This document shows positions 3,732-32,938 of a DNA stretch of 64,000 nucleotides, one piece after another. Position numbers and translations under genes: made by a program. This DNA is from Escherichia coli (GTDB lineage Bacteria; Pseudomonadota; Gammaproteobacteria; Enterobacterales; Enterobacteriaceae). The stretch lies in the NCBI RefSeq assembly GCF_011045215.1, contig NZ_CP049201.1; one strand, given 5' to 3'. Under the pieces are notes generated by a model. It saw only the letters and a program-made list of their open reading frames with translations. It searched no databases and had not been told where the DNA came from. Positions within the stretch are counted from its first letter, which is position 1; every line of letters starts with the position of its first letter.

Positions 3732-3811
3732 TTTGCCGGATGGCGCTGCCCCTATCCGGTCTACGGAATGGTGTGGTGTCACCGGTTATTTCGAGAACTG
3801 AATATAGGATT

Positions 3812-4508: not shown

Positions 4509-4528
4509 CTCGGCATCAGGAGATAAAC

Positions 4529-5110: not shown

Positions 5111-5485
5111 CTATTTCTTGATTCCTAAACGGAACATATCAGTTGGGAATAAAGGTTGTATTATCACTTCATCATTAAAAATGAATAATTTGGGCGATAA
5201 AGCTGTTACGTCATAGATATTTTCAGCGATTAATCTTAGATTTGACCTAAAAACTGGAATACTTGCATCATCTACAAAGACAAACATGTCATCGTTTTTT
5301 ACAGAGTTTGCACACAATAGCTCATCAAAACTCTCATAATCAGAATGCCAGATCTCTGACCAAGTAACACTTCCTTTCGCGAGAGGGTACTTATTTAAAA
5401 TGCCCAGAGCCTCCTGCTGAGCCAGCCCCTCTACTATATTAAAATCAGCACTCAGTGCTTCCCGACACTCATCAAATAAAGTCAT
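5111..5485 (-). CDS. cdiI: CdiI immunity protein (cognate to the CdiA-CT encoded at 5494-6246)
   Basis: 124-aa acidic protein starting 5 nt after the cdiA stop codon; position and size typical of cdiI. Confidence 0.75.
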   Translation of the reverse strand: MTLFDECREALSADFNIVEGLAQQEALGILNKYPLAKGSVTWSEIWHSDYESFDELLCANSVKNDDMFVFVDDASIPVFRSNLRLIAENIYDVTALSPKLFIFNDEVIIQPLFPTDMFRLGIKK

Positions 5486-5490
5486 TTGCT

Positions 5491-14565: not shown

Positions 14566-14580
14566 TCTGATAAACCTGAC

Positions 14581-15108
14581 TTATCTCTCCGGCACATCCA
14601 CAGCAAGCGGGTGCTGCACACGCCACTGGCGCGCCTCTTCACGACTGACCTGTGCACCCCGGAAATTCATCACCCGCAACCCGGTCTGCTGCCCACGGTG
14701 GTACAGCGAACGCCAGCACAGACGGGGAAAAATATCCTGCCGGACAAGACGACTCATATCCGGGGTATGTCCAAAAGGGGCAATCCAGTCACAGACCCAC
14801 ATCCGGTCGCCGCTGTTCCAGTCCGACTGAGGCATGAGAATTGCCGGCTGCGTAAGATAACGCGCCTCTGCCTCCGGGCTGAGCCAGGCCTGGCTCATGA
14901 AGAAAACCGGTCGCCCCTGCTCTGTTGCCACCACATACTGTCGGTGCTTAATCACCGGCAGCAGCAGGTCCGGCAGGGTATGCAGTGGCGCATCACGATG
15001 CAGGGGGGAGTGCATCCACAACCAGACGGCCGCCCCCAGGACTTCCGCCTCATTGACCGGCTCACCGGAATACAGGGGACTCAGAACGTCATATTTCCCG
15101 TTACGCAT
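14581..15108 (-). CDS. cdiC: CdiC, HlyC/TAAT-family lysine acyltransferase
   Basis: 175 aa; WLWMHSPLHRD ... HRQYVV ... WNSGDRMWVCDWIAPFGH closely parallel the HlyC motifs (WLWASSPLHRN ... NQYVLL ... WTSGDRKWFIDWIAPFGD, recalled from memory); sits between cdiB and cdiA. Confidence 0.85.
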   Translation of the reverse strand: MRNGKYDVLSPLYSGEPVNEAEVLGAAVWLWMHSPLHRDAPLHTLPDLLLPVIKHRQYVVATEQGRPVFFMSQAWLSPEAEARYLTQPAILMPQSDWNSGDRMWVCDWIAPFGHTPDMSRLVRQDIFPRLCWRSLYHRGQQTGLRVMNFRGAQVSREEARQWRVQHPLAVDVPER

Positions 15109-15117
15109 GAAACTTTC

Positions 15118-16857
15118 TCAGAAATCCCGGAACAGATTAAAACCGGCTGTCACATCACTCGTCATAAAACCCGCCGGCTTTGAAAACGGACGACCGATGA
15201 AAACGTCATAATCCGTACTGAACAGTTGCCCCCTCAGCCCCACAACACCACCAGCCAGATGACGTCCCACCAGGTATTCACTGCCGGCTCCCCCCACCTC
15301 GCCGTAATCCATTCCCAGATATAACTCCTGCTCCGGCAGTGGCGTACGCCAGGCCAGGTCGTTGCGGATATACCAGCCGTTACTGGCATTCAGCGTTCGC
15401 TCCCCGTCAAAACCACGAACCGTCCAGCGGTTACCGATGGCAAACTGTTCCTGTGGGGTCAGCGGGGTATTGCTCAGCTGGCGCTGATACCGGAAGGAAT
15501 AACTGAAGGGCTGCCCTGCAAGGGTAAAGGGCAGATTAAAGGATGCATTCAACTGCAGGATCTTACTGAGCGCCGTTGCCTCACCGAACGTTTCTTCCGG
15601 CGCCGGCTGTGCACCAAACCAGCGGGTTCCCCGTTGCCAGCTGACACCAGCATCCAGTGTGGCCTGAGAAATATAATGACGGTGCTGCAGCCCAAGTCGC
15701 CAGGCCGCTGTCTGCCGGCGCTGCACCTGGATTTCCGTATCATTAATGTAGTTACGCGACCTGCGGGCCTGAACATCGTAGGTCAGCACCGTTTTCTGCG
15801 TCCCGTTACGGTGCAGTACCCGGCTCAGCTGCATACCCAGATTCTGACTCTCGCCACTGTACTGGTAATCCTCAACCGCACCAGCTACCGTCTGATGGTA
15901 ATCGTAATCACTGGCGGTGACGGAAAACTGCCAGTAGCCGAAAGGCACAGAGTAATGGGCCGTGTAGTTTTTACTGCCCTTACCCCCGTAATGTGGAAAA
16001 TTACGGGTGGCAGAAACATACAGCAGGTCACTCAGGGAAAAAGGATTATCCAGAGAAAATGTTATACCACCGAGATAACGCCCTGTGCTGCGGGTACCTG
16101 AATCATCAAGCGAAAACCCCAGTCGCCAGTATTTGTCCTGTTTGCGGGTAATAAGAATGTCACTTTCCCCTGGCTGCTCACCGGGTACAATTTCCATATC
16201 AGCCTGCACACCCGGCAGTCGTTGCATATTCTCCAGCCCCTGCTCAATGTCCCGTAAATCCAGCAGAGAACCTTCGTGTGCCGGGAATGAGGAATACAAC
16301 TGAATATAGTCATCACTGTCCGGTGTCAGACGCACATGTCGCACAACACCGGGAATAACAACCAGCCGGAGGATACCGCTTTTTAAATCCTGCGAAGGTG
16401 CCAGAACACGGGTGGTGACATAACCATGATCGACCAGACGGTTCTGCAATGTACTCATCAGCAGATTAATTCCTTTCGCCCCCAGGCAATGCCCGACCGC
16501 CCCGTTGGCGATTTTTTGTAAAGGCAGCCAGTGTGGTAACGCATCAGCCCCCTCCAGTTCCGTCTGTTTAATCTGAAAACAGGGCGTTTCAACAGGAAAA
16601 TTAATCTTACGGGCAAAAGAGCCAGGTGCAGAAAGGCGAACATCAGGGGCTGAAGGCGTCAGTTGTTGCTCAAGGGCTTCCTGACGCTGCTGCTGAATGA
16701 TAAATGCATTATCTCCGCTACGCCGGACATCCGCGGCCTGAAGAGATAAAGGCGATAATAAAACAGACATCAGTGTCAGTGACAGCAAGGACGGACAGCG
16801 CCGGAATACGCTTTGTTCCTCAGCCCTCTCGTTCCTGCAACATAATTTTCCAGTCAA
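15118..16857 (-). CDS. cdiB: CdiB outer-membrane TpsB transporter (ShlB/FhaC/HecB family)
   Basis: 579 aa; signal peptide; POTRA-like N-terminal region and beta-barrel C-terminus ending in an aromatic residue; immediately upstream of cdiC-cdiA. Confidence 0.9.
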
Positions 16858-17448
16858 ACGAAAAACCTTTTATTCATGTCATACCAACAATCACCAGCCT
16901 CCTGACGATACCTCCCACCATGTTTTGCGATGGTACGCTACCGCCCTTCCGGTATTTACCCGCATCAACCGGTACCAGAATGTTGAGTAATAAATTTGTC
17001 AACTCTGAATTGGTTTAATTTTGATCATTATAGAATGAAGATCTGAAAATTCTCAATATTGCAGACATATCGATCGATATGTAGTTATCACGTAGTTATT
17101 TATTCCAACTAATATCGCAAAAGCAGCATATTGCAAAACTTATAACCACGGAGAACAAAAAACGACAGAAAATTATTCCGTAAGATGCTTCAAATACAGC
17201 CAGTCAACACTGAAAAAAGTGATTTTTGATTAAAATCATTGAAGTTTATGCAGTACAGAATCTGAGCGGTTCTCAGCGAAAGTCAGAAGAAAGGGAGGTG
17301 AGGTAAAAGGCAGAAATCAGAGTGACAGGAATGCACAAAAAGCAAAAAAAAATCAACAAAACAATAAATTAACATACCCCGAAAAAGCATCCGCAACGTA
17401 CCGGGTAATAACAACAATATCGTGTAAAACAACATTGTTCCGGAAGTT

Positions 17449-17640
17449 ATGTCTGAAGATATCCCGTTACCCAAAGTCGGTCAGCGATACAGAGACGATC
17501 ATGGTGCGCTTGTCACCGTAACCAGTGTTGAGGAAACCCGGGTGGTATTTATGCGGGACGGCTATCCACATCCCTGTATGCGGCCAATGTACAACTTTCC
17601 AGGAAAATTCAAACCCGAACCCCGGGAAGAAACAGAATAA
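17449..17640 (+). CDS. Hypothetical small protein (63 aa)
   Basis: ORF with a compact protein-like sequence (MSEDIPLPKVGQRYRDDHG...); no recognised domain. Confidence 0.3.
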   Translation: MSEDIPLPKVGQRYRDDHGALVTVTSVEETRVVFMRDGYPHPCMRPMYNFPGKFKPEPREETE

Positions 17641-17692
17641 AACGAAATTCCTGCCGGCAATCACACTGCCTGATGGCAGCATAATCCACTTT

Positions 17693-17926
17693 TTAATTCT
17701 CATCCCCGAAGACAAGCCCAGAAAACCACTCCGGGTGTTCACTGTATGCCGTGTTCAGCGCATCCCAGGAAACGTTTATATAAAAGCTGTCCTGCAATCT
17801 GCGGGTAACAACTTCTGCCAGGCGATTCCGGTTATCCGCCAGTCCGGCATAACCTCTCTCTGCCAGCCACTCATTCAGTTCATGTTCCAGAGACAGATTG
17901 ATAATATCGTAATCGGACCTTGCCAT
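17693..17926 (-). CDS. Hypothetical small protein (77 aa)
   Basis: ORF downstream of and co-oriented with the 207-aa gene; amphipathic, protein-like composition. Confidence 0.35.
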   Translation of the reverse strand: MARSDYDIINLSLEHELNEWLAERGYAGLADNRNRLAEVVTRRLQDSFYINVSWDALNTAYSEHPEWFSGLVFGDEN

Positions 17927-18012
17927 TCCCGTTTCCTTAGCACATGTTTTCAGGCACGGGTAAAAGTATAAAGAATGTCATACTGCTGCCAGAGCCCCCC
18001 CTGATGGTCGTA

Positions 18013-18636
18013 TCAGAGATGGTATGCCGGCACTTTGCGGGTTGTTCCCGTCAGGTTATCGTGCACCTCCACATTCGTTGTCACTACCGGCATTCCGCTC
18101 TGTCTTAATCTCAGGACATCAGCCGCAATACGCTGACTGCCAGACCAGAACAGCCCGTCCAGTGCGGTCACCAGTAAACCTGCTTCCAGCGCATACTTCA
18201 GCCGTTCACGGGACGCTTTCACTTCCCGGGCAACCTGCTGATATGGCAATGATGTGTTTTCATTCCCAACCACGCGACGAATACGGTGAGACAGATGATA
18301 CCGGAATGTATCCGGCACACCCGAAAGGCTGGCCTTCAGGCTGTACACGCAGCCAAACCGTTTATCGTTGAACACCACATTTTTCTGGCTGATGCCCCAT
18401 TCTTCACGCAGCGCGGCAATCAGTTGTGGTGTCCGGGTAAGCAGCAAGCGAAAAGGCAGCTCAAAACTGGTGACGTAATCCACATTCAGCAGTGCAATAC
18501 GCAGCCGTTCTTCTGGCCCGGCCCCTGTCTGCCGGCACTCATCCAGAACATCCTGCCACTGCCGACGAAGACGTGGAGATTCATTCAGTTCTGTAAAACA
18601 GTATTTATTCACCAGATAATCAATTCGTGTACGCAT
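18013..18636 (-). CDS. Hypothetical protein (207 aa)
   Basis: ORF with balanced composition; no recognisable motif. Confidence 0.45.
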   Translation of the reverse strand: MRTRIDYLVNKYCFTELNESPRLRRQWQDVLDECRQTGAGPEERLRIALLNVDYVTSFELPFRLLLTRTPQLIAALREEWGISQKNVVFNDKRFGCVYSLKASLSGVPDTFRYHLSHRIRRVVGNENTSLPYQQVAREVKASRERLKYALEAGLLVTALDGLFWSGSQRIAADVLRLRQSGMPVVTTNVEVHDNLTGTTRKVPAYHL

Positions 18637-18895
18637 AATATAGATTCAGGAAACAATAAAAGCTGAATAAGCCCATATTTCATTGGGAAAACTGCAGTGT
18701 CAATACCAAAATGTTGCTCAAATCGTAGTAGAAGTATGGGATGTAGCGTTCAGGGTATTAAGAAACTTTTAGTTGACTACGATTGGTAAAATACATTAAT
18801 TTTTATTGCGGTTGCGTTTAATAGACTGCGGAGCGTGTTAACGCTCTAAATAAAAGTACTTAAGATGGCATAAATGTTACAAGACCAGGATAATT

Positions 18896-19291
18896 ATGGC
18901 TGAATTTACTGTAAGATCGAAGGATGAACTCGAAAAAGCTCAAAACAGCAGAGCTGAAATTATAATTATTGAAGGAGAGTTAGCAAATAAAATTAAAAAA
19001 GCAAAGGCTGTAACAAAAGTAAGTGGTGTTGTTATTGCTGCCATGATCGCAACTTGTGCTACTATTCCACTCACTGGTGGAGGTTCTGTTTTAGCTGTTA
19101 GTTCTTTAGCTGCATTATCCGGACTTGATATCGCTGTTATTATTGCTGCAGCATCCATTGGTATTGCTCTGGTTATTACTGTTTTCCGCGATTACGAAGA
19201 AATTGAATTTAGCAATGGAAAGATGATATTAAAGTTAAAACGTAAAAAAACTGAGTCTACAACTGACAAAAATGAGAAAAAGCAGAAGTGA
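18896..19291 (+). CDS. Hypothetical small membrane protein (131 aa, two predicted TM helices, Lys-rich tail)
   Basis: AT-rich ORF; hydrophobic segments VSGVVIAAMIATCATIPL and LDIAVIIAAASIGIALVITVF. Confidence 0.45.
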   Translation: MAEFTVRSKDELEKAQNSRAEIIIIEGELANKIKKAKAVTKVSGVVIAAMIATCATIPLTGGGSVLAVSSLAALSGLDIAVIIAAASIGIALVITVFRDYEEIEFSNGKMILKLKRKKTESTTDKNEKKQK

Positions 19292-19598
19292 AAGGTCTGT
19301 GCATCGGAATATGAACATATTTTAGTAATATTTTAATAAATCGTAAAGCCTCTATATTCAGAACCACGAAATAGAGGTGTTTTAAACTGCAACTGTTATC
19401 TCAATTTTTATCGAGGCGCCATTAAAACAAATACCCCGTTCTGCTGTTTTCTGATTATGCCATGAGATTAAAAACACTAATTTTTGATTGAATTGTATAT
19501 ATACATTGTAATACAAGATTTAAATACATATTTCTTCTTTTTTATCTGTAATCTATTATTATCAATAATCACATGAACAATATCAGAGGCAACACATT

Positions 19599-20372
19599 AT
19601 GAATAAAGCTGAAGTTCTGGAAAAAGGTTATTGGATTGAAATCAGTATTGATGCATATGCACAAAAAGTTAAGGGTATATCACGAGATGACTACCCACCA
19701 TTACGTTGTATCTCATGCGAGAAACCTGTCCATGATAGCGGATTAGTCACTCCCAATCCTGATTATAGCCCCAGATTCTCTCATTCCGCTTCACCAGAAA
19801 ATAAAGAGTTCTGTCCCCTAAGCGCAAGATCTCAACGTTTTTCTGGTTTTTCAGGTAATGAACGCTCTGCTTCAGCAGAAATTGCAGTATCTCGCCGAAA
19901 TCAATTCATGCAATTTGATAACCTCTATCGGGCCTGGGTTGTTTGTAGAGCATTAAGGGGAGGTGAAGGGAAGCTTGATCAAAAATCATTCATTCGGATG
20001 GTCAGGATCGCGGATAGTTTTGGGATCTGGCATTATAGCTATATGCCTGACTGGGGAATCCCTCTTATGCTAATGTTAATGGATAACCACCCGACACCAA
20101 ATGGTAAATCAACTTTTTTCTATTCATTAAAAAAAGAACGTGTTCGAAAAGGTGTAAAATGGCAAGATCTAAATGTCAGACTTGAAGCACATTGGGTAAA
20201 TGGTGGTAACCGCATAGTTCCAAATAAAGATAAAAAAGCTTCATTCTTGCTCACCATTCCATTTGCTAAGTCTGTTATTGATGAAATACTGAGTAAAGAA
20301 AATCTGTCATGGTGCTCAAAAAACTCTCTACCAATATTGCATTCTTTTAGCATTAGAGCTTTAACCACTTAA
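19599..20372 (+). CDS. Hypothetical protein (257 aa) with an N-terminal CxxC pair
   Basis: AT-rich ORF with purine-rich sequence just upstream; CISCEKPVHD motif; no recognised family. Confidence 0.45.
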   Translation: MNKAEVLEKGYWIEISIDAYAQKVKGISRDDYPPLRCISCEKPVHDSGLVTPNPDYSPRFSHSASPENKEFCPLSARSQRFSGFSGNERSASAEIAVSRRNQFMQFDNLYRAWVVCRALRGGEGKLDQKSFIRMVRIADSFGIWHYSYMPDWGIPLMLMLMDNHPTPNGKSTFFYSLKKERVRKGVKWQDLNVRLEAHWVNGGNRIVPNKDKKASFLLTIPFAKSVIDEILSKENLSWCSKNSLPILHSFSIRALTT

Positions 20373-20662
20373 TTGAGGAAGTAATGATACAAGCTACAGT
20401 ATTGGTGACGAATCTATAGACAAGGAGATAAAAACCAAATATCAGAATTATTTTTGATAGTGCTGGTAAAGAAGCGGTGTTTGATATCAGCATGTTTATC
20501 GGAAAAAAGCTTACCTGGAGCTTTGAAAAATTGCAAAGCAGGGCCTGACAATGAAGGCCCTAATACTGTACTAAATGTTAACTCAGTACCAAATCACAAG
20601 GAAAAGTATTTTTTCTGGTAAGATTCTATATACATAATAAATCACCTTATAGTTACAATAGG

Positions 20663-21166
20663 TCAAAAACCGCTGTAGCCAAAGTTACGCTGGCCTGATG
20701 CTTTAGTGTCGAGCTTCGTCAAATAATCCAGACGTACCAATAAGCGCTGGTACTGCTCAGGGAAATCAGGATCGTTAATATCCAGGATGTAACGCCCATT
20801 AGTAGGGAAATGAACTAATCCCTGGTGATCTTCCAGTTCCAACCCTAAGGCACTGTACCAGGCTCCGGTAATTAACCCTCTCAGGGTGTCAGAGCGCTCA
20901 TAGTCTCCCAGGTGGTAATAGGCGTCTTTGTTAAACAACAGGCAGACGTGATAATGACATTTAAAGGACTGCGTATATTCTTTCGCCCAGATAATACAAA
21001 CCGACGTTGCGTAGGTGCGTTTGCCTTGTTGTTTTTTACGGTGTTGATCTGCATTAATTTTCGCATTCAGCGAGTTACGGAAACGAGATATTTCTCCGGG
21101 GGTCAGGTTAGGAAAACAGGTAATGGTATCCCCGTTGTCAATCACAGGAGGGTAATGGAGATCCAC
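20663..21166 (-). CDS. YfjJ/YagK-like (inovirus Gp2-type) prophage protein
   Basis: 167 aa; resembles the CP4-57 YfjJ family and the paralogue at 21739-22302. Confidence 0.5.
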   Translation of the reverse strand: MDLHYPPVIDNGDTITCFPNLTPGEISRFRNSLNAKINADQHRKKQQGKRTYATSVCIIWAKEYTQSFKCHYHVCLLFNKDAYYHLGDYERSDTLRGLITGAWYSALGLELEDHQGLVHFPTNGRYILDINDPDFPEQYQRLLVRLDYLTKLDTKASGQRNFGYSGF

Positions 21167-21280
21167 CCGTATTGCTGTTATTCTGGAAGTATTTTTAATA
21201 TTCGTATTGATAGTTCTCAGAGATATATCACACTCTAGATATTTTAATTAAGTATCAGTTCGATATCGGCATATTGTACA

Positions 21281-21644
21281 CTACCTCTGGTAGATGATGA
21301 GATCAGATACAGGGATCAACTGACGGTGAGCGCAGTCCCCACATTTTATCCAGGGCTTACTGCATATTCCCAACAGCCATTCGTTAGCCAGGTAGACGAA
21401 TACCCTTTCCGCTGGTTTTGCTTTCCCATCGAAGGGCCCATACATCATCACGCCCGCGAAACAGTCGACAAAATAACGCAACTTTCTCATCCGTGGATAA
21501 TACGAAAACGCACTGCACAGGGCTCTGCGGTTTACGTCGCCATTCAATCCCATGAGCTTCAAGTAATGAGACCAGCCGGGTATTTTCTGCCCGCAGTACT
21601 GCTAGTTCATCGCTGTCAGATTTATAAACCATATGCGTTATCAC
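21281..21644 (-). pseudogene. Fragmented gene remnant (two overlapping minus-strand frames)
   Basis: ORFs 21281-21562 and 21384-21644 lie in different frames and overlap; consistent with a frameshifted relic. Confidence 0.3.
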
Positions 21645-21738
21645 TTGTACCTGTCTCCCGGCGGCACCACGACTGAAATTCGTGTGAAGGCAAATCCACG
21701 CGATAACTTACGATAGTTCGGACATAAGCCCCCATAAT

Positions 21739-22302
21739 TCAGTTATGTCGTGGTCGGCCGCGGTTACTTTTTTCGGGAAGCCTGCTACGCCCCAGAATAA
21801 TACCGTGTTCTTTCTGATCCTGTTTCGCCAGATAGCTAAGGGCGTAACGTAAGTCGTCTACCGCAGATTTATCACTATAGTGAATTACATGATCGATACG
21901 CACCGGGTATTTATCTTTAGCCCGGCACAGGTGAAAATAACCCTCCCCTTCCGTGATCCGCCTCCAGATATCTCCCAGTTGCCTGGATATCTGATAAGAG
22001 TTCTTGTGACGTTGTCCATCCAGATAGCCGATAAAATGAATATGAAGCCCTTTGTCTGGTGTATATTCCATTACCCAGTAATATCCCGCCAACATCGTCT
22101 GGGTTTCGCTAAGTAAGCGGTACATTTCCATACACATACTGTGCTTACAGGAAAGACCAAAACTGGGCGTGTCTTTCCTGTAAGCAAAATCAATTCTGAA
22201 AGGTAACAGTTTAGAAAAACGTTGAAACAGACCTTCCATGTGTTCATTCACATCTTTCAGAATCGCGAAATTCATTTCGTAATTGGGATTGGCATTATAC
22301 AT
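21739..22302 (-). CDS. YfjJ/YagK-like (inovirus Gp2-type) prophage protein
   Basis: 187 aa; family resemblance to CP4-57 YfjJ; prophage gene context. Confidence 0.55.
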   Translation of the reverse strand: MYNANPNYEMNFAILKDVNEHMEGLFQRFSKLLPFRIDFAYRKDTPSFGLSCKHSMCMEMYRLLSETQTMLAGYYWVMEYTPDKGLHIHFIGYLDGQRHKNSYQISRQLGDIWRRITEGEGYFHLCRAKDKYPVRIDHVIHYSDKSAVDDLRYALSYLAKQDQKEHGIILGRSRLPEKSNRGRPRHN

Positions 22303-23240
22303 TTTATAGTCCTTACTTTATAAAACTGACAGGAAAGTGGAATTACATAAATACTGAGAGTACAGAAACGCCGTACCGCGGCATTAATAAAAGAGGTAAC
22401 CAGCAGCACAGACAACCTGATAAAACTGTTTCGTATTACCTCATTACAGTAATAGGGTAATGATTCAGAATACAGTAAGACTTTCTTAAACTGAGGACCA
22501 GAACGAATTACAATAAAAAACACACCTCATATAATTGAGTTTAAGAAAGCACCATTCAATTACTTACAGGATATAATCTGATCTTCACAAAAGTCAGTAC
22601 CGGGTAGCCACAGACAACATCGCTATTAATATTGCCGTACCATTAAGTAAAAACAGAGACTCTGCAGAGAGAGCCTACAGATATTTAACCTCACAATAAG
22701 AAGATTATTTCATACAGAAAATATTATATTTACCTATGCTTATAAACTGTAACGGAGCCATAACATACTCTAATAGTGTTCCGGTACGTAACCAGTGTTA
22801 AGTGCGTACAAGACAACATAACATAACAGATTTATGTTCCCAACATTACACCACATAATTCACCATACAGCTTCCCCCCATATGCTTCACTGCGTAGTGT
22901 ATGGAGATATATGTATTACACACATACAGAATACTTAGCATAGAGAGGAGTGACATTACGATAAAAGAGACAACATAACAGATCACATAACTCCCACTAA
23001 TAATACTAATTAACCTAAATTATTTATTGAACACGAAAACAATGAAGGCCCCACCTCACCTCAGACTAAAGCCGACAATATCCTGAGCAACACTCTATCC
23101 AATAGTAAATAGTGGTTACACCAGTTATATTTACTGACTGACCTGTACCAGAGTTTTCTAATACAACGCTGACATGGTAAAGACATTAGTCTCCTCCGCA
23201 AGTAGCAGAGGAGACTATATGTACTCAACGATTAAGTCGT

Positions 23241-24692
23241 TCAGAGGTCAAAGTTAGGTGCGACACACAACGTTTTTCCCTCAATAACCGGTACAACTCT
23301 GTTTTGTTCATACAGTAAATCCAGTAACCAGTTGATTTTATCCTTTTTCCGGAAACGGTTCGGGCCACGCTGTAAAATGTCATTTTTTTTCATACAGAGG
23401 ATCCCCTTCTCAATGCAATAGCTTTTTATCCAGTTGAAAAGTTCAAGCTCCTCTGGAATGAGTCGCACAGGTACGGTCAGGGCGGAGTTGTCAAAAGTTA
23501 ACGGATTAGACAACCGCACATACTCATTACCGTACCATATTGCTAATTCTCTCGCCATTTCTGCAGTGTAAGGGGAAATCTCCCCCTCTTCACCGCTCGA
23601 ATGGTAAATAAGTCCTGCCAGTCTTGCCATATACTCTGCATTTTTAGCAGCATATTCCCGGCAATGTCTTAAAGGCCCCAATCCCCCCAGCTTCGATTCC
23701 ACATCATTGTAATAATCCGTCCAGATTCTGGCAGCCTGAGGAGAAAAGTGAAGGCAACGTCGTTCACCACTCATCGCCAGACTTTCATCAATAAGCTCAT
23801 TGATCCTCTCTTCAAACAAATCCTGATACTGTGATGAATAATTATCTCCGGTTATTATCCTTGTCCCCTGCGTTGATGTTGGTTGACACATCAAAAACCT
23901 TGCATGATGTCCTGACGTTTTCACAAGTTCTTTTTTTCGCGTACAAAAACCTTTGTGGTAAACATCAGGCTGAATCATCACCGATATCGTCAGTCTTGGC
24001 TCCTTCAAATTAATTCCGGGAGATGATTTCCTGTCGATGAAAAGAGAACCTCCATCCCACAAAGTGTTAATAATTCCCAGTTTACTCATGGCCCGGCTGT
24101 CAAAAATTACCCCCCCTTCACTGGATACAAGAGCAAAAGAGCGATTGCTATCAGAGTAATATTTTAACATTCCCTCTATCGTTGTCTCATTAAAAATTGT
24201 TCGACGTATCTGCGGCGGAACAGGAGATTTATTCAGATGCGTTTCAAGCTCTGATTCTGTTGCCTTGTAATCTTTACCGGCACGAATCTCTTTATGAAAT
24301 TTTGATTCCAGCGCTTTTTGTTTTTGCTCCCATATTTCCTTTTCTGTACTGTAATTCTCAACCAGTTTCGCGTATTCTTCCGCCAGGGCTTCATCCCTGA
24401 GATAAAATGCTTTCATAAACACTTTATCCACGGTCGTTTTCCTTTCACCGGAATCAGCCAGAATCAGAGAGTAAAGATTAACAGGCCCATGTAAATTTCC
24501 AGGTCTGCACACGTCAATCTGATTCTGACAGGCAATTGAGATCGCTGTTAATGCGGATGTTGCCACCATAGCCAAAGGTGCCTGTGTATTTTTTTGAGTT
24601 TCAATTATTGCATTTCTCACCAGCGGTGGTAGTGCATATATCGGATAAGGATTTTCTGGTGCAAGTAAGCACATAAAAGCCTCTCTTTTCAT
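23241..24692 (-). CDS. DUF3987-domain protein (YfjI-like, primase C-terminal-like)
   Basis: 483 aa; sits downstream of alpA as yfjI does in CP4-57. Confidence 0.6.
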   Translation of the reverse strand: MKREAFMCLLAPENPYPIYALPPLVRNAIIETQKNTQAPLAMVATSALTAISIACQNQIDVCRPGNLHGPVNLYSLILADSGERKTTVDKVFMKAFYLRDEALAEEYAKLVENYSTEKEIWEQKQKALESKFHKEIRAGKDYKATESELETHLNKSPVPPQIRRTIFNETTIEGMLKYYSDSNRSFALVSSEGGVIFDSRAMSKLGIINTLWDGGSLFIDRKSSPGINLKEPRLTISVMIQPDVYHKGFCTRKKELVKTSGHHARFLMCQPTSTQGTRIITGDNYSSQYQDLFEERINELIDESLAMSGERRCLHFSPQAARIWTDYYNDVESKLGGLGPLRHCREYAAKNAEYMARLAGLIYHSSGEEGEISPYTAEMARELAIWYGNEYVRLSNPLTFDNSALTVPVRLIPEELELFNWIKSYCIEKGILCMKKNDILQRGPNRFRKKDKINWLLDLLYEQNRVVPVIEGKTLCVAPNFDL

Positions 24693-24892
24693 TAATGGGT
24701 TAGTAAAATAGCAGCAACTCCCGCTACAATAGCGAAAATAGCTGCTATTCAGACCTGATGCTCTGAGAAATACTGAGCATTTGTAGATCTGATGTTTAAT
24801 AAACCGATAAGGTTAATTCAGTGCAGACTGTATTATTTACCACGAAATATCATTCATATTTCTCATTCTTAATACCTCCAGAAATTATTTCA

Positions 24893-25090
24893 CTAATACC
24901 TTTCCCCCGGTCTTTTCCCTTTCTCCAGAACCATAGTGTAAATATTAACGGCCCCACGTAAATTTCCGGGGCTGCATACGTCAACCTGATTCTGACAGGC
25001 AATTGACATCGCTGTTAATACTGACATTGCAACCAGAGTCAGAGGTACTTGTTTATTGTATTGAGCTTTAATTATTGCCTTCCCTATCAT
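24893..25090 (-). pseudogene. Duplicated 5' fragment of the DUF3987 gene
   Basis: 65-aa ORF (…TLVAMSVLTAMSIACQNQVDVCSPGNLRGAVNIY…) paralogous to the N-terminus of the 483-aa protein (…LAMVATSALTAISIACQNQIDVCRPGNLHGPVNLY…); flanking DNA is also duplicated. Confidence 0.5.
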
Positions 25091-25316
25091 TGATGGTCAC
25101 GTATATACTGAATACGGCATATCCGGTTTGATGTAAGACATAAATGCTTCCTTTTTCGTAATACGTTTCGGTTATAGCAGCAATTACCGCTACAATAGCG
25201 ACAATAGCTGCTCTTTCAACAATGAATGCTGGAAATTCTGTTTATCAATTAAACTTCTGGCTAAATTGTTCTTATGCTTCTTTTTCCTCCTGAGGTGATC
25301 ACGTGATGACAAAAAC

Positions 25317-25625
25317 TTATCTGCTCATGGTCATATCTGAAGAAAGCGTATGTCGCACTTCGTCATTAACACCTTTGACTGCTGATCTGGCAGGTACAGT
25401 ATGTAAAGTAAGCCATTCGTCAATAGCTGATGAACGCCAGCCCACAGAACCACTACCAAGACGTACCGGCCTGGGGAAGGTTGCATCGTAGTATTTCGAT
25501 AACGGATTCATTTTTTCGTAAATTGTCGAACGAGATATACCTAACAATTGGCTCAGTTCAGGCATCCGTAAGATGCGTGAAGGAGTCCAGCAGTATCCGG
25601 ATTGATCTGGCATTTTATCCCCCAT
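25317..25625 (-). CDS. alpA: AlpA-family phage transcriptional regulator (HTH)
   Basis: ...RILRMPELSQLLGISRSTIYEKM... is the AlpA-type helix-turn-helix signature; start codon uncertain (25625, 25613 or 25697). Confidence 0.7.
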   Translation of the reverse strand: MGDKMPDQSGYCWTPSRILRMPELSQLLGISRSTIYEKMNPLSKYYDATFPRPVRLGSGSVGWRSSAIDEWLTLHTVPARSAVKGVNDEVRHTLSSDMTMSR

Positions 25626-25822
25626 AGTGTGGTGAACTGTCGTTACAGTTTGTATTCCCCGGGTAAATTTGTCTGCGTAAAAAAATGGGCTGAGCAAAAA
25701 GACAATAAATAATTAAAAATCAATACGATAGAAAACAACAGCATTATTGTTATTTTACTTTCTCCTTATCACTGTCGATTCTCATTATCATTCATTGGTA
25801 AAAAAACAGCAAAAGAGGCCCT

Positions 25823-26585
25823 GGTAATGACTCCAGTCAGTAGTACAGTGTTTTCGATAAATGAACCAATGGCTTTTCGTGAATTTCCAGGGAGCGTGAA
25901 AAGCAAATCGTTTTCCGGGCTGGTCGTTTGATGTGAGTACGAAGTGTCAGATTGTTGCGCTCAATGCGCCGGGTAAATATCTTGCCGACAAGATGCTTAT
26001 CCTGTGGCATTTCTCTGGTATAACTGCTCCGGTTGTCTCTGGTTATCATGCCTGTGGAGAATGGCTTCAGGAGTTCCGGCAACTCACGACATGTTTCATC
26101 AGTGCGAGGACCAAAAGTGTAAGCCAGCACACCTCCAGATTTGGTGTTATACGCATACCAGTGCCACTGCTGACGAGCTTTGTTTTCGACAAAACTCCAT
26201 TGTTCATCAAGTTCGCAGATAAGCGCCACATCGGCACTGACGTCTGGAGATGTGGTTACTTTGCGTGGTGAGCGTTTTATAAAGTGAGAATGACGGTGTT
26301 GATATCCACCTTCAGCGTTCTGGAGCTATCGCGAACCCGACTCCGTTATGAACCATTTCAACAATTTGCTCTTTGATGCCTGGTTTTCGGGTTTCGTAGA
26401 TGTAATTCAGTTGAAATACACACATTTGCAGGATTAGCACTGGAAACGCTCATGATCTGAGGTGCTGTGATCATAATGGTACACTTTATAGGAATTACAG
26501 CGGGGAGAATGTACTGTAACTGTTGCCATATGGTCTCCAGATACCAATAGAATATCACATTAATCTATCGTCAGAAGGCATCACC
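25823..26585 (-). mobile_element. IS1-family insertion sequence, divergent and degenerate (763 bp)
   Basis: Terminal sequence ggtaatgactcca at 25823 and gcatcacc at 26578-26585 match the IS1 inverted repeats; the 130-aa ORF 25837-26229 resembles the InsB C-terminus (MALICELDEQW...RIERHNL...); the InsA-like frame is interrupted. Confidence 0.6.
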
Positions 26586-26725
26586 GGGGCCTTCTGACAT
26601 AATCTGTTAATACGTGTACTATTACCCTGTTCAGAAAATATTGATTCAAAAATGAAAACCAGTTAACAGAAAAGCAAAATGATATAATGTTAAAATTTTA
26701 TATAGTGCAATAAAAGGAGAATGTT

Positions 26726-28543
26726 ATGTATAATTTTATCACTATAATGTATGATGTCTTTTCATGTTTTGGTGTTCTGGCTAAAAACCAGAATACCCGT
26801 GACATCCGAAATATTAAAAATTTTTCCTCACATCAACATTCACTGGGCGACATGTTTGATGAATTAATAAACATTATTGATAAAGAACAAGTATTGAGTA
26901 CAGAACAACGAAAAGTTATATTTAGGAGATATGAAGATCTCTATGTTAAGCTAATGCACTATTCTGTTTTTACAGACAAAACACATCAAATAATAAAACA
27001 AAAATATTTTAATGACATTGTACCAATGATTCTCGCACTCGACATCAGGAACACATATCGCCCGGATAATGAGATGGCATTTTACTATCATATTCATTCT
27101 TTTCTCACTCAGATACCGGATAATGAGGATGATATATATCATGCTGCAAGGACATATCTGCGAAATTACATTAAGTTATGTTTATCCGGATACACACCAG
27201 CGAATGCGCATTTCAAAGATATCTTTGATGGCGTATATGAATTCATTCGTAATATTCGCAAAAACAGTACACCAGGAAAAACAAAACTTACCGCAACTAT
27301 CAACACATGCAAAGAAACCTGTAAACATCTGCTTTATTTAAGTAATGAAGACAAGGAAAAAATAATTTCTGACTTAGATAAAATTCAAGTTGCATGTTAT
27401 TATCTCACCATATTACTGGCTTTCGAAAGACGAACTTCATTAACAAGCGCCCTGGCAACTTTATATAAAATGCTGATAAGCGAAAGAGAAGTTTCAGAAT
27501 ATGAATGCCAGTTATTATATTTAACCAACCCAATAGATGTAATGAATATACTGAACAAACACATATATTACTTTCCTAATGAGAACTCACCATTTTATAC
27601 ACTGAAAATTGACAGTGCATTATCGTGGGAGGCCATTGACGCAATACGAGACTATAGTATTTCTGATATTTATCTTTATCCTGAACAAAAAACAATAAAT
27701 TGTGTCGTTGAGATTGAAAACATTGTCTTTGGCGGTTACATTTATACATTGAACAACGGCGTCACATTACAAAACATAGAAAACACTTTAAAAGATTCTT
27801 CATGCCATTATGTCTTAAATGGCTATACAGAATTTGTTAACTGTTTGATACAACTTACTTCAGGAAAGACTGAAAGTGTTCATCGCACCATCAATAAACT
27901 GAACTATGAGAAATTACCTTTTGGATTTATCATTGCCGCGTTTGCTATACTAAAGATAGCATTTAAAATAAAATTCAGTAAAAATCATGTAAATATCCGA
28001 GCATTATTAAATGACATCAATTATTTTATGACTTATCAGGGCGAGTCCATTAACCTTATTTCACTGGATCACGAATACCCAGAGTCCTGTCTTCAAAATG
28101 ACACAAACACATATTTATTAGGAAGAGTAATATTTCTGTATAACTCAATGATTTATAAGTTCATAAACTGTCAGGAACATGAAACCAATAACATTCACTC
28201 AGCTATGATAAATAACCTATTACAGGAAGTTGATATAGCCCTTGGTAAAATAAATAACATTATAGACAGCAGAAATATATCAACCCCCCATGAACTAGCA
28301 AATATTCTTACCCGCGAAAAAATACTTACAACACGGGAAAAAAAAGGAAACCTGATAAGCCTGTTTGATGGATTCACTTTATTCCATTGTGTTGGAATGA
28401 TAACCTTTCTTATCCATTATCTCAGAACACCTGAAGAAAAAGTTGAAAATATATTTATGTTATATGGTGCAGATAAAAACAATAAACTACGCAGAAGACT
28501 GATTTATGACGCACTAGGAATAATTCAGTCTCAGCAGGAGTGA
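26726..28543 (+). CDS. Hypothetical 605-aa protein, strongly AT-rich, no recognised domain
   Basis: Long uninterrupted ORF in low-GC DNA with AGGAGA 7 nt upstream of the ATG; Asn/Ile/Tyr/Lys-rich; two short hydrophobic segments; no P-loop or nuclease motif recognised. Confidence 0.6.
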   Translation: MYNFITIMYDVFSCFGVLAKNQNTRDIRNIKNFSSHQHSLGDMFDELINIIDKEQVLSTEQRKVIFRRYEDLYVKLMHYSVFTDKTHQIIKQKYFNDIVPMILALDIRNTYRPDNEMAFYYHIHSFLTQIPDNEDDIYHAARTYLRNYIKLCLSGYTPANAHFKDIFDGVYEFIRNIRKNSTPGKTKLTATINTCKETCKHLLYLSNEDKEKIISDLDKIQVACYYLTILLAFERRTSLTSALATLYKMLISEREVSEYECQLLYLTNPIDVMNILNKHIYYFPNENSPFYTLKIDSALSWEAIDAIRDYSISDIYLYPEQKTINCVVEIENIVFGGYIYTLNNGVTLQNIENTLKDSSCHYVLNGYTEFVNCLIQLTSGKTESVHRTINKLNYEKLPFGFIIAAFAILKIAFKIKFSKNHVNIRALLNDINYFMTYQGESINLISLDHEYPESCLQNDTNTYLLGRVIFLYNSMIYKFINCQEHETNNIHSAMINNLLQEVDIALGKINNIIDSRNISTPHELANILTREKILTTREKKGNLISLFDGFTLFHCVGMITFLIHYLRTPEEKVENIFMLYGADKNNKLRRRLIYDALGIIQSQQE

Positions 28544-28730
28544 AACGTTAAAACAGGCAAATTGTTTTTTATAAACAGGAGATTGTTGAGTAATCCCCTG
28601 TTTATAAAAATACGCTTTCCTGACGATCTGATAATTATCAGCTCAATACATTTGACATAAAAGCGGTTCCTTAATTACTACTGCCACGATCACATATCAA
28701 ATCATGATCGTACAATATACATTTTCACTA

Positions 28731-29933
28731 TTATTTATTCACAATTTGAGACATCACATAATCCGCCCATGCCTGCATCATCGGTACACGCTGCTCCAGT
28801 AGATCAGTGCGATGATATGCCGCCTCAACCTTATTTTTCAGCGTATGAGCGAGCGCCCTTTCCGCCAGATCCCGCGAATACCCCTGTTCACTACACCAGT
28901 CCCTGAATGTTGAGCGAAAACCATGTGCCGTGGCAACTCGCCCCGGAATGTCACTGACGGCTTTCTTTTTACGCAGAAAACTTGTCAACACCATATCGGA
29001 AAGGATCTGCTGCTTTCTGGGTGAAGGGAACACCAGTTCATCATGCAGGCCACGTATATTTTCCAGAATGTAAATAGCCTGCCGGGATAAAGGAACACGA
29101 TGCTGTAGCCTAGCTTTCATTCTTTCTGCAGGTATAGTCCATACCCGCTTATGAAAATCAATTTCAGCCCAGCGCATTCCCCTGGCTTCGCCCGAGCGAG
29201 TTGCTGTAAGTATCACCATTAATAACAGTGCGCGGGTAACATTATAAGGTTCATCACTATACACACTGGTCGCCACAAAAAGCGGTAACTGCCTCCAGGG
29301 CATTGCGGGTTGGTGTTCATCACGTCCTCTTGTCTGCTGAGGAAGCAAATGGTCAACCACATCAACAGGATTTGCCACACAAAAACCGTGCGCCCATCCC
29401 CACTGCATAACAACATGAATGCGCTGTTTAACCCGGCTTGCCGTTTCTGACAAGGTTAACCAGACTGGACGCAATGTTTCTGCCACGTCCGCAGCCGTAA
29501 TCGAATCCAGCGTTTTTGCTCCCAGTTGAGGAAACGCGTAATTCTCAAGCGTCGATAACCACTGCCTTACATGCTTTGGATTTTCCCATCCAGGAGACAG
29601 TTCTGCATGTACACGCCTGGCTGCATCGGCAAATGTTGGGATAACGACTTTCTCAGATTCAGCCTTTTTAATCTCCAGAGGATCATCACCTGCAGCAAGT
29701 TGCTCTCGCATTATCCGGGCAGTACGTGCAGCTTCAGCAATACTGACCTCTGGGTAAGTTCCCAATCCAGCATTACGTCTTTTTTGTGTCACCGGACTTA
29801 CATAACGAAAAACCCATTTCCCCCGCCCCTTTACTGAAGAAGGATGAAGGGTCAGTCCGGTAATTCCCCCATGGGGCAATGGTTTGTCATCAGGTTTGAT
29901 ATGTCTTGCTTTCGTATCCGTCAATACTGCCAT
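28731..29933 (-). CDS. int: P4-type (tyrosine recombinase) phage integrase
   Basis: 400 aa; N-terminus MAVLTDTKARHIKP...; C-terminal catalytic region with HGFRST...; ends ...LAHT...AYHRTD...RVPMMQAWADYV, conserved in P4-family integrases. Confidence 0.9.
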   Translation of the reverse strand: MAVLTDTKARHIKPDDKPLPHGGITGLTLHPSSVKGRGKWVFRYVSPVTQKRRNAGLGTYPEVSIAEAARTARIMREQLAAGDDPLEIKKAESEKVVIPTFADAARRVHAELSPGWENPKHVRQWLSTLENYAFPQLGAKTLDSITAADVAETLRPVWLTLSETASRVKQRIHVVMQWGWAHGFCVANPVDVVDHLLPQQTRGRDEHQPAMPWRQLPLFVATSVYSDEPYNVTRALLLMVILTATRSGEARGMRWAEIDFHKRVWTIPAERMKARLQHRVPLSRQAIYILENIRGLHDELVFPSPRKQQILSDMVLTSFLRKKKAVSDIPGRVATAHGFRSTFRDWCSEQGYSRDLAERALAHTLKNKVEAAYHRTDLLEQRVPMMQAWADYVMSQIVNK

Positions 29934-30149
29934 ACGCTAATTCCCGTCACTCTGGTATGCCATCCAGTATGCCATTAGTCTCTCGCTTCACTAAGAATAC
30001 ATTAGATAATATCGGACAACAAAAAGTGTAATACATTGTTTATAATGAAATTATATAACACCCCTGGATTAAGTCAGATTTATTTCAGGCGGTCCCCCTC
30101 ACCGCCATATTTAAATAAATATCCTCCGGCATAGCCGGAGGTTTTTCAA

Positions 30150-30860
30150 ATGCGCCTATAAGGCTCTCTTACCAGCCGCGCCCTAACAGGCGCACACGAT
30201 CTGACATTTGCATCCAACTTCGTTACTTACGGCCCGTAAACGGGCTGCCCGGATAGGGAATCGATAACTGCTCTCCCATTTCATCCTCTTCAAGCTGGTG
30301 CTTTATGTAATCCTGTATCTTCGCCGTGTTCTTACCCACCGTATCGACGTAGTACCCTCTGCACCAGAACTCCCTGTTCCTGTATTTGAATTTCAAATCC
30401 CCAAACTGCTCATAAAGCATCAGACTGCTTTTCCCTTTCAGATATCCCATAAAGCCGGATACGCTCATTTTGGGCGGGATCTCCACAAGCATATGGATAT
30501 GATCTGCACAGCATTCAGCTTCAAGAATCCGTACGCTTTTCCACTCACACAGCTTTCTCAAAATACTGCCTATTGCTCTACGCTTCTCTCTGTAGAACAC
30601 TTGTCTTCGGTATTTTGGCGCAAAAACTATGTGATATTTACAGTTCCATCGGGTGTGCGCTAAGCTCTTTTCGTTCCCCATTGGGACCCCCTTTTGATTT
30701 CTTGTTTGACACTTGCAGTTGCCAGACCGCAAGGTGTTTTAACAAATCAAAAGGGGTTTTAATAACTGGCTCAAAGCTGAAAGCTTTCCGGAACCCCCAG
30801 CCTAGCTGGGGGTTTTCTGTGCACAAGAAGAGCCCGTACGAAAGTACGGGCTTTTTTTTC
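30150..30860 (-). mobile_element. IS200 element (ends approximate)
   Basis: tnpA flanked by palindromes (acggcccgtaaacgggctgcc at about 30232; gcccgtacgaaagtacgggc plus T8 at 30831-30858); boundaries not determined. Confidence 0.5.
30223..30684 (-). CDS. tnpA: IS200 transposase TnpA (IS200/IS605 family Y1 HuH transposase)
   Basis: MGNEKSLAHTRWNCKYHIVFAPKYRR...HIHMLVEIPP...YY motifs; near-identical to IS200 TnpA as recalled; start taken at Met17 of the 169-aa ORF. Confidence 0.85.
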   Translation of the reverse strand, partial: PMGNEKSLAHTRWNCKYHIVFAPKYRRQVFYREKRRAIGSILRKLCEWKSVRILEAECCADHIHMLVEIPPKMSVSGFMGYLKGKSSLMLYEQFGDLKFKYRNREFWCRGYYVDTVGKNTAKIQDYIKHQLEEDEMGEQLSIPYPGSPFTGRK

Positions 30861-31010
30861 GTATATTGCACACACCGGGTGCCCCCGCCCACGTCTGTTA
30901 GGGCGAGGGGAAATCGTGCACATCAACTGTCTGATTGCTCAGTCAACAATCAAAATGCGCAAGAGAGTACAGAACATATATGCGCTATCTGGTCACTTCC
31001 TGTAACTTCC

Positions 31011-31997
31011 TCACTTATTAAAATGCCCCCAACGGAAATACATGTCACATGCCATCATAAAATCGTTATGCCAGAGGAACCGACAATGGAAAAAATAGTA
31101 AATTAAGCACGGTACATAGCAGAGTAAAAAATAGGCTTCAAACCAAATCCGCCATTCCACAAGCGTTGCCAATACCGACACCAGCGTAATCCACATCACT
31201 TCAATAACCAGCAATATGAATAACCGAAGCCAAAGCGGCTTGGCAAAAAAGGTCGACAACGCATTTTCACTGGAGAAAAACAGATCGATTTCCTGCAAAA
31301 AAAGCCTGCCCAGAAAAGCGTACCGCTTGGAGAAGCGCAGAAAAAACAGATTAATCGCCAACACTACGCCACAAAGAATGAGCAATGCAATTATCGATTT
31401 AAACGTTAACCACTGCCCCTCTGTCACAAAAGAGTTACTGTTACGCAACGGGCTGATAGTAAGCAGGTTAACAACCGTTGAGATACAAACCGAAAGCAGC
31501 ACATAGCGAGTCAGACTTTTATATTTTACTTTTTTCGCTACTGAAATAGCGACCTGCTTGACATAACTGGTGCGGATCATCCGAAACAACAGAAAGATGA
31601 CCAACGGCCCAAGTAACGAAATCAGGAACAGCGCATATAACGAGGGTAGAAGCTGGTATAGCCCCCAACTCATTGCACTCAACATGATTAACGACAGAAA
31701 TCCTGCCACCAGAGGTTGTGTAAGAAATAATTCTATTTTGTGGTTCTGCTTTTTCTTAAACCACGAAAAATCGATATTCTTCGTGACGCATTTATAAGCC
31801 CAGTACGCCTTGAGATCAAAAATAAAATTATACAGCACCAGGGCCAGAATCCCACTAACTACACCAATATCCTCTGATGGAAAAGTAAACCCTGCATTTT
31901 TCCAATAAAAGCCTATCAGAATAAGTCCAATAGCATAAATGTATATCAGATTTCGTTTATCCTGAAAGCGAATAAAAGTTAAATAATCAGGAATCAT
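31011..31997 (-). CDS. Hypothetical polytopic inner-membrane protein (last gene of the biosynthetic cluster)
   Basis: 328 aa, multiple hydrophobic helices; start overlaps the stop of the upstream acyltransferase. Confidence 0.5.
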
Positions 31998-32938
31998 TTG
32001 AATACCTTCGCATCACTAAATGCTTTACGACAATGCATAACTCGTTGCTGATCCACGCCAGCAAAATCATTTAACATATTCCCCAAATAGGGCTTATTAC
32101 TTATTTCAAGGAAAGCTACCGGGGTTGGCATATTCAGAAATGTATCGAGAGATTCAGTCCATTTCACCGTATGAGTTAAGTGTAATGAGAGATTTTCTTT
32201 GATAATTGACGGAGCGACCTCGCTTTTTGCTGTTACGTTCATCAGAACCTGATGCTCTGGCGAAGCGATATCCAGTCCGGCAAGATAATCGCGCATTGCC
32301 TGAACGCCGTCTTCCATCAAACGCGTGTGCCAGGCACCGCTCACACCGAGTTTAACCGGTTCGTACCCAGCGGCCATCAGCAGCGTGGCAAATTCATTCA
32401 ACGCAGTCTGCGTTCCCCCAATAACCTGCTGGCGCGGCGTGTTATCACAGCTAATATCCAGCGCAATGCCTGATTCCGTAATCATCGTCTGCAGTTGTTC
32501 GCGGTTGATGCCTTTAACCGCCAGCATTGCGCCTTTATTTCTCTGGCTTTCGTCATGCATCAGGCTGGCTCTGAAGTGAATCATGCCAAATAGCGTCTCA
32601 AGAGAAATAGCTCCAGCGGCGTAGAGCGCACTGTATTCACCAACGCTGTGTCCGCAGGAGCCCACAACCGTTAAATTCTCAAGACGCTCGCGGCACAGGG
32701 TATAGAGCGTTACATTAATTGCGGTCACCGCCAGTTGTTGTACCGTCGTTTGAATAAGGCGATTCATCGGCCCTTTCTGACACAGGCGACGCAGGTTCAG
32801 TCCGGAAATATCGCTGGCACAATCCCAGATATGTTTTGTACTGGCGTTGAGATCCCAAAGATCGCTGCCCATACCAATAACCGGATTACCCTGACCGGCA
32901 AAAAGCAGTACTGTCGGTTGTGAAGCATTATTCATCAT
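31994..32938 (-). CDS. FabD-like malonyl-CoA:ACP transacylase family acyltransferase
   Basis: 314 aa; GHSVGEY active-site motif (GHSxG); N-terminal LLFAGQG. Confidence 0.7.

Follow-up and report, generated by a model that had tools for sequence, protein, structure and literature searches.

serX and serW, two identical transfer RNA (tRNA) genes for tRNA-Ser(GGA), are the insertion sites of a family of large genomic islands. One member, SpLE1 of O157:H7 strain Sakai, is equivalent to OI-48 of EDL933, has a duplicate, OI-43, at serW, and also goes by the name of tellurite-resistance and adherence island. OI-43 and OI-48 are flanked by perfect 14-bp repeats, TGGCGGTGAGGGGG, which correspond to the final 14 bp of the genes serW (OI-43) and serX (OI-48); the same direct repeats flank the SRL PAI, and the P4-family integrase gene (int) of OI-43 and OI-48 is 99% identical in nucleotide sequence to that of the SRL PAI but is 15 bp shorter (PMC3064760). 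Recombination between the two 14-bp copies leads to complete excision in ~2 × 10−3 of cells for OI-43 and ~2 × 10−4 for OI-48 (PMC3064760). The SRL PAI of Shigella, with the same repeats and with serX as its target, excises precisely at a frequency of ~10−5 in a reaction that requires int (PMC3064760, PMC7545054). Islands at serX and serW are mosaic and rich in insertion sequences (ISs), and they often carry internal deletions (PMC3064760). Here we describe a 64,000-nucleotide stretch of Escherichia coli DNA (contig NZ_CP049201.1 of RefSeq assembly GCF_011045215.1; the window, below), in which the segment at 20,663–30,860 had been taken, in a preliminary description, for a small decayed element resembling CP4-57 of K-12. 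With a probability of about 90%, this segment is instead the int-proximal backbone of a large island of the SpLE1/OI-43/OI-48/SRL-PAI family at serX, between ghrA and ycdU.

The 14-mer CCCCCTCACCGCCA at 30,094–30,107 on the plus strand is the last 14 nt of tRNA-Ser(GGA) serX/serW and the same as the 3′ end of K-12 serX; it lies upstream of int, 160 bp from the start codon, and an exact-match search found it as the sole exact copy within the window. The 14-bp repeat required of this island family is thereby present at the int-proximal junction. In island-free K-12, the 3′ end of serX (...GGGGGTTCGAATCCCCCCCTCACCGCCA) is followed by a terminator hairpin and then by ycdU. When the DNA upstream of int was aligned, related loci shared ...GGCGGT CCCCCTCACCGCCA, as read on the plus strand of the window, and then continued into their own chromosomal flanks, and the switch from island to chromosome fell exactly at the 14-mer in every related locus examined, at both the serX and the serW sites. 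Members of the family adjoin ycdU at serX or clpA at serW, and the window has ycdU together with a displaced serX terminator.

ARAGORN found no complete tRNA or transfer-messenger RNA (tmRNA) in the whole window, and no tRNA in ten related loci; Rfam searches of the window at gathering and at permissive thresholds returned no tRNA, and only the IS200 leader RNA STnc490. Such searches come up empty, as expected, because just 14 nt of the tRNA is left at the int end. An ARAGORN scan had been proposed in the preliminary description, and on complete genes its expectation held; its statement that 29,934–30,222 is free of tRNA-like sequence does not stand, since the tRNA-Ser 3′ end lies inside that interval. 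The same description had named a tRNA 3′ end matched by a direct repeat at the other end of the element as the observation that would count against decay. The first half of this pair, the 14-nt core, is in the window, and the matching far-end core is seen only in relatives, in strain EC2 and in Sakai, where SpLE1 abuts intact serX. The window was found to contain no serX, no ghrA and none of the backbone genes typical of the serX-proximal, far end.

In the complete relatives, int lies at the end distal to the tRNA gene. In Sakai, the annotated SpLE1 begins at the 14-mer by ycdU, its first gene being int (ECs1299), and ends 86 kb away directly at intact serX, after which comes ghrA. In EC2, the same Int accession lies beside ycdU and the island extends for ~89.5 kb to intact serX; both of its junctions share CCCCCTCACCGCCA, the far copy lying inside the intact serX gene. 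The Int protein of the window is 99.25% identical to ECs1299, and the 5-residue gap between its 400 residues and the 405 residues of a Shigella flexneri integrase matches the published 15-bp difference between the int genes. An index of the assembly collection lists the exact 400-residue sequence in 20,272 blocks, and its E. coli neighborhoods, in the places read, were clpS-clpA (serW) or pgaABCD-ycdT-ycdU (serX). Two direct copies of GTATGCCAT stand between the int start codon and the core and are the only plus-strand copies in the window. In EC2, which has an island of the same type, a counterpart pair, CAGTATGCCATCGGGTATGCCATC, is found ~60 bp inward from the serX-proximal end, an end at which the sequence GATTATAAGCGCATGTTATTG occurs with a pair of GTATGCCAT repeats. 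We consider the copies at 29,955–29,975 to be putative arm-type binding sites for Int, probably serving that role.

On this reading, the P4-family Int recombines at the 14-bp core formed by the 3′ end of serX or serW, and after integration one end of the island has serX intact while the other has a 14-nt cryptic copy, ser'X. The int gene sits beside the cryptic copy, at the tRNA-distal end and next to ycdU, and the window holds this cryptic copy together with intact int and intact alpA. Excision, as known from the literature on close relatives, proceeds by Int-mediated recombination between the two 14-bp repeats and is probably assisted by AlpA. The backbone in the window has lost most of iee and is fused to a second island backbone that carries cdiBCAI.

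Comparison with SpLE1 extends the likeness beyond the junction. The window and SpLE1 share the site between ycdU and serX-ghrA and the same 14-bp core, and window positions 21,735–30,118 are colinear with ECs1299–ECs1304 at 92–99% DNA identity. In Sakai, the order is ECs1299 (int), ECs1300, ECs1301 (an IS1 relic), ECs1302 (alpA), ECs1303 (yfjI), ECs1304 and ECs1305 (iee); the order ECs1299–ECs1305 that marks the family backbone is found in the window, with iee present only as a 117-codon remnant. A gene of the ECs1377 family also occurs in both. Unlike SpLE1, however, the window has iee cut to its first 117 codons and fused to a second module of YfjJ-type, ECs1377-family and DUF4222 genes, and its visible cargo consists of cdiBCAI and an arginine deiminase module, with no ter, ure or iha in the visible part. 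In the window, but not in Sakai, an IS200 separates the core from the serX terminator. The cargo of the SRL PAI differs as well, consisting of resistance genes and fec.

The chromosomal flank agrees with this placement. Positions 30,825–64,000 are colinear with Sakai ECs1272–ECs1298 at 98.3% identity, and ycdU is 98.2% identical to ECs1298. Salmonella SPI-6, a type VI secretion island at aspV, had come under consideration because of the IS200 with its STnc490 leader and the large gene cluster on the right; the right flank itself and its colinearity with Sakai led us to reject it. Between 31,011 and 59,357, this flank holds ycdU, a full-length ymdE (ACP S-malonyltransferase), a cluster resembling fatty-acid and polyketide synthases with an ABC transporter, a two-partner secretion pair and a chaperone-usher fimbrial operon, and no type VI secretion system. 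The same interval corresponds to Sakai ECs1276–ECs1298, of which K-12 retains just a ymdE pseudogene and ycdU beside an IS3.

The resemblance to CP4-57 of K-12, on which the preliminary description had relied, is one of general kind. Its minus-strand gene list and order were borne out by open reading frames (ORFs) and Pfam domains, and the order of a P4-type int, a divergent cargo gene, alpA, yfjI (DUF3987) and yfjJ is indeed that of CP4-57, so that the segment was rightly placed among P4-type integrative-island backbones. Protein identities to CP4-57 are just 34–54%, however: 34% for Int (over 408 aligned columns), 54% for AlpA, 41% for YfjI and 44% for YfjJ. The general scheme of insertion at the 3′ end of a gene for a small RNA is common to this cryptic prophage and the island. 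The target of CP4-57 is ssrA, and intA lies beside the intact ssrA gene, whereas here tRNA-Ser is the target and int is found at the opposite end from the intact gene; the window contains no tmRNA, and its core is the tRNA-Ser 3′ end. Int and IntA belong to the same family but differ in specificity and are not orthologs. A tRNA had been expected beside int because intA of CP4-57 adjoins ssrA. As int lies at the tRNA-distal end in the SpLE1-type family, a missing tRNA beside it says nothing about loss of the attachment site.

Table 1. Features of the window from left to right. Positions are those of the 64,000-nucleotide window.
Feature	Position	Strand	Evidence or remark
Arginine deiminase module (arcC, argF, DcuC-type carrier, ArgR-like)	250–4291	+	Pfam
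cdiB-cdiC-cdiA-cdiI contact-dependent inhibition locus	5111–16857	−	Pfam ShlB with POTRA, HlyC acyltransferase, CdiI_ImmP
DUF4222 gene	17449–17640	+	Second module
ECs1377-family gene	18013–18636	−	Second module; NCBIfam ECs1377_fam
131-residue ORF	18896–19291	+	Second module
257-residue ORF	19599–20372	+	Second module
YfjJ-type ORF without its first 7 codons	20663–21241	−	Pfam YagK_YfjJ_C; first gene of the second backbone module
iee remnant (IS-excision enhancer; primase-polymerase and helicase), codons 1–117, frameshifted	21287–21632	−	tblastn
Gp2-type ORF, 187 residues, ECs1304 homolog	21739–22302	−	93.6% identity to ECs1304
yfjI (DUF3987, helicase-like), 477 residues, intact	23241–24674	−	Pfam DUF3987, full length
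Diverged N-terminal DUF3987 fragment, upstream of yfjI	24893–25141	−	Pfam DUF3987, profile positions 1–42
alpA-type regulator, 98 residues, intact	25317–25613	−	Pfam Phage_AlpA; PHROGs 'excisionase and transcriptional regulator'
Old IS1-family relic, ECs1301-type pseudogene	~25794–26558	−	130-residue ORF matches DDE_Tnp_IS1 (Pfam)
605-residue cargo ORF, ECs1300 homolog, G+C ~32%	26726–28543	+	Between int and the IS1 relic
int, P4-family tyrosine recombinase, 400 residues, intact	28731–29933	−	Pfam Arm-DNA-bind_3, Phage_int_M, Phage_integrase
Two direct copies of GTATGCCAT, 3 bp apart (putative arm sites)	29955–29975	+	Between int start codon and core
Attachment core, cryptic ser'X	30094–30107	+	Int-proximal island junction; unique exact 14-mer
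IS200, 709 bp, intact	30116–30824 (limits ±2 bp)	−	Y1_Tnp transposase; chromosomal flank, outside the island
Displaced serX terminator (30825–30880), intergenic flank and ycdU (31011–31997)	30825–31997	−	Aligns with K-12 and with related loci L008/L009

The relics in the backbone are shared with other strains, and this bears directly on whether the copy in the window was immobilized where it stands. Positions 22,968–30,115 are colinear with the islands of DSM 103246 and EC2 at 98.6–98.7% identity. Over the longer interval 13,241–30,118, the window is colinear at 99.4–99.8% identity with loci L033 and L036 at serX and L034 at serW (loci retrieved from other genomes carry L numbers), each of which has a precise 14-bp junction. 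As judged from these alignments, the variant with truncated iee and the IS1 relic is placed at two alternative attachment sites. Since the relics recur at 98–99.8% identity in many strains, at serX and at serW, they are no mark of a locally immobilized copy. For the exact YfjI sequence, the index of the assembly collection lists 80 blocks, and the places read were again serX and serW. No complete E. coli genome in RefSeq was found to have the exact arrangement of the window, the best match covering 85% of window positions 16,000–32,000 at 96.9% identity.

Gene by gene, the minus-strand backbone reads int, IS1 relic, alpA, DUF3987 fragment, yfjI, Gp2-type ORF, iee remnant and YfjJ-type ORF, with the 605-residue ORF on the plus strand after int. 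This conserved ORF is 98% identical to ECs1300, which is itself annotated as 'membrane protein', and fills the variable cargo position of yfjH in CP4-57; it had no match in Pfam, PADLOC, NCBIfam, PHROGs or PDB sequences. At the IS1 relic, the annotation of relatives gives an IS1 family transposase with frameshift and internal stop, or the transposase pseudogene ECs1301, and the surrounding DNA is colinear with other strains at 98.5–98.8% identity. Locus L002 has an intact IS1 at 13,260–13,957 (window ~26,691–26,699), immediately next to the old relic and flanked by a 9-bp duplication of its target. We rejected the possibility that the two are the same element, as the intact IS1 is at a different position and represents an independent and more recent insertion; insertions recur in the interval between int and alpA. 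AlpA, a probable excision activator or directionality factor, is 100% identical to the L003 copy and 98% identical to ECs1302.

The DUF3987 fragment (65–82 residues) is 52.6% identical to the N-terminus of the L003 YfjI, which is in turn 95% identical to the product of the adjacent yfjI, and the annotation of relatives lists it as a separate coding sequence of 65 residues. YfjI of the window is 95.8% identical to ECs1303. The Gp2-type ORF was without a hit in Pfam and did not match K-12 YfjJ in BLASTP, and its name (inovirus-type Gp2 or YagK/YfjJ domain) comes solely from the RefSeq annotation of relatives. With Sakai ECs1305 (IEE) as a tblastn query, residues 1–76 aligned to the iee remnant at 91% identity and residues 84–117 at 79%; relatives carry the remnant as a frameshifted, incomplete TOTE conflict system primase. 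The deletion scar at 21,241–21,632 cuts iee after codon 117 and joins it to a YfjJ-type gene that lacks 7 codons, the remainder of which is 88% identical to residues 8–205 of the intact gene in A20. This scar is also present in DSM 103246, in GXU-23-25-310 and in ~80 blocks of the assembly collection, which points to an SpLE1-like sublineage without functional IEE. The backbone does carry relics, as the preliminary description had said: those of an IS1, part of a DUF3987 gene, and primase-helicase and YfjJ-type genes that are both truncated.

The island continues to the left of the segment. The gene order of the second module (17,449–20,372) is likewise annotated in DSM 103246, A20 and GXU-23-25-310, and this interval is colinear at 99.4–99.8% with loci at serX and serW. 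Beyond it, the cdi locus is contiguous with the backbone in other strains to window position ~13,240, which is the limit of the retrieved loci. Alignment thus indicates an island of at least 13,241–30,107, contiguous with the backbone elsewhere, and the island very probably reaches position 1 and continues beyond the left edge, where an intact serX should be found. The cdi locus is complete, with the HlyC-type acyltransferase as CdiC and an immunity protein resembling that of EcoliA0. No identical sequence is on record for the exact 3024-residue CdiA, and the toxin end probably varies, as the CdiA proteins of relatives span 2940–3289 residues. Next to the cdi locus lies the arginine deiminase module, in which the end of arcA precedes arcC at the window start (1–4291, plus strand). 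More than 16,000 blocks of the assembly collection contain its exact ornithine carbamoyltransferase, in numerous unrelated mosaic settings that include various islands and an IncFII plasmid. The module is probably further island cargo, in which case the island runs past the left edge of the window. Strains A19 and A20 have similar cargo in islands with other integrases at other sites.

The IS200 next to the core agrees with its group in length (~707–709 bp), in having one Y1 transposase and a structured 5′ leader, and in causing no loss of target DNA. In its 709 bp, its 152-residue Y1 transposase, its STnc490 leader and its terminal hairpins, it resembles other members of the IS200/IS605 family, with nothing unusual; the transposase differs by one residue from the common allele, and the leader scores 146 bits in Rfam. 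It is separated from the core, on the chromosomal side, by 8 bp that are unchanged. Compared to locus L008, which has the same junction between ycdU and int without IS200, it is a clean 709-bp insertion for which no flanking base was lost; one side is uninterrupted relative to L008 (...CACCGCCATATTTAAA), and the other continues into the serX terminator and the ycdU flank.

IS200 occupies the identical nucleotide in two island-free strains, DA33137, where it directly follows intact serX, and NCTC9064, where it follows the last serX-downstream repeat, and also in GF4-3, where it lies beside a different island variant with a frameshifted int. These copies differ from that of the window by 2–7 nt. 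The shared spot precedes the terminator hairpin and is 8 bp past the CCA at which serX, or a repeat derived from serX, ends (30,116–30,824 in the window; 3023–3731 in both L029 and L031; 20,168–20,876 in L028), and it marks either an old common insertion or a preferred target. Given the identical insertion in island-free strains, we regard this IS200 as a polymorphism of the serX locus itself, one that most likely arose before the island was acquired or independently of it. Where the island is absent, the end hairpin and T-run of IS200 directly follow serX, in place of the native terminator. The other strains in which the exact YfjI sequence revealed the same island variant were all without the IS200.

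Two further observations concern this locus. Many strains have, downstream of serX, one to three repeats of ~180 bp that are annotated as RtT small RNA (L013, which is K-12, 3990–4565; L014, 36,060–36,460; L029, 2697–3014), and each repeat ends by duplicating the final 19 nt of the tRNA together with the terminator; because they contain the 14-bp core, these repeats are potential secondary attachment sites. No RtT repeat lies between the core and IS200 in the window. In strain 100181 (L030, 2149–3711), the left end of IS200 directly adjoins a DUF932 gene that belongs to the distal backbone of the island, beyond which lie antirestriction, yeeS/T/U and cbtA genes. There, unlike in the window, the int-proximal part of the island has been deleted up to IS200.

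Several points weigh against our assignment of the segment to a serX island of the SpLE1 type. The evidence on this copy is at the level of sequence, and the far end, with intact serX and the second repeat, is outside the window. IS200 sits 8 bp from the core and may affect Int binding. The call of arm sites has as its sole basis a 9-mer repeated at both ends of one relative, and the S. flexneri integrase to which Int is identical at 395 of 400 residues may come from elsewhere than the SRL PAI.

Among the alternatives, the one that survives best accepts this identity and holds that the copy is locked, either because its serX-proximal end has been deleted or rearranged outside the window or because IS200 disturbs the binding of Int on the chromosomal side. 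The far end does lie beyond the window, mosaic and IS-rich islands of this family are prone to internal deletions (PMC3064760), and relatives exist with a frameshifted int (GF4-3) or without the int end (100181). In the window, however, int and alpA are intact, as are the core and the putative arm repeats, and no change is seen in the 8 bp that separate IS200 from the core. Moreover, an empty site consisting of serX plus IS200 exists in other strains and is the product expected of precise excision as well as a form of the integration target. We therefore think a locked copy unlikely, although it merits more weight than the remaining alternatives.

The reading of the preliminary description, a small (~10 kb) CP4-57-like element that lost its tRNA and attachment end through an IS200-associated rearrangement and was immobilized, is very improbable. 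Its starting points are real: the window lacks a complete tRNA, IS200 lies near int, the backbone holds several relics, and 100181 demonstrates that deletions adjacent to IS200 do occur at the serX locus. It fails on the attachment core, which is present with a clean insertion 8 bp outside it, and on IS200, which is continuous on both sides with the uninterrupted L008 and stands at the same spot in island-free strains. An IS200 had been correctly recognized, as its Y1_Tnp transposase and STnc490 leader confirm, but its limits are 30,116–30,824 rather than 30,223–30,860, so that the last 107 bp of the interval 29,934–30,222 is already IS200. Nor is position 20,663 the boundary of an element, as the island continues colinearly to its left through cdiBCA, and the place of int at the tRNA-distal end is normal for the SpLE1-type family.

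Large islands in E. coli can spread through recombination of their flanking DNA, and one could suppose that the 14-nt match is due to chance and that the island arrived by homologous recombination or transduction instead of site-specific integration. No result of the analysis speaks in particular for chance. This alternative is hardly credible, as ~5 × 10−4 exact 14-mers are expected in 128 kb of two-strand sequence by our own arithmetic and one was found, every locus has the 14-mer exactly where island and chromosome meet, beside one or the other of two flanks (serX and serW), and excision between these repeats is published (PMC3064760).

The assignment to the SpLE1 family at serX places the segment in a system that is already known: int, the 14-bp serX/serW core and excision have been published, and the backbone is annotated as SpLE1 in Sakai. 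Its value as a discovery is accordingly small. Two modestly new readings might go further, although we consider them improbable: IS200 at the edge of the chromosomal attachment site (attB) might alter the efficiency of SpLE1-type integration or excision in the lineages that carry it, and the 605-residue ORF might have an undescribed function in defence or at the membrane. For the comparative genomics of E. coli islands, the combination of an SpLE1-type integration module without functional iee, cdiBCAI and the arginine deiminase genes is of routine interest. For annotation, the lesson is that only a 14-nt tRNA fragment, invisible to tRNA finders, marks the int-side junction of such an island.

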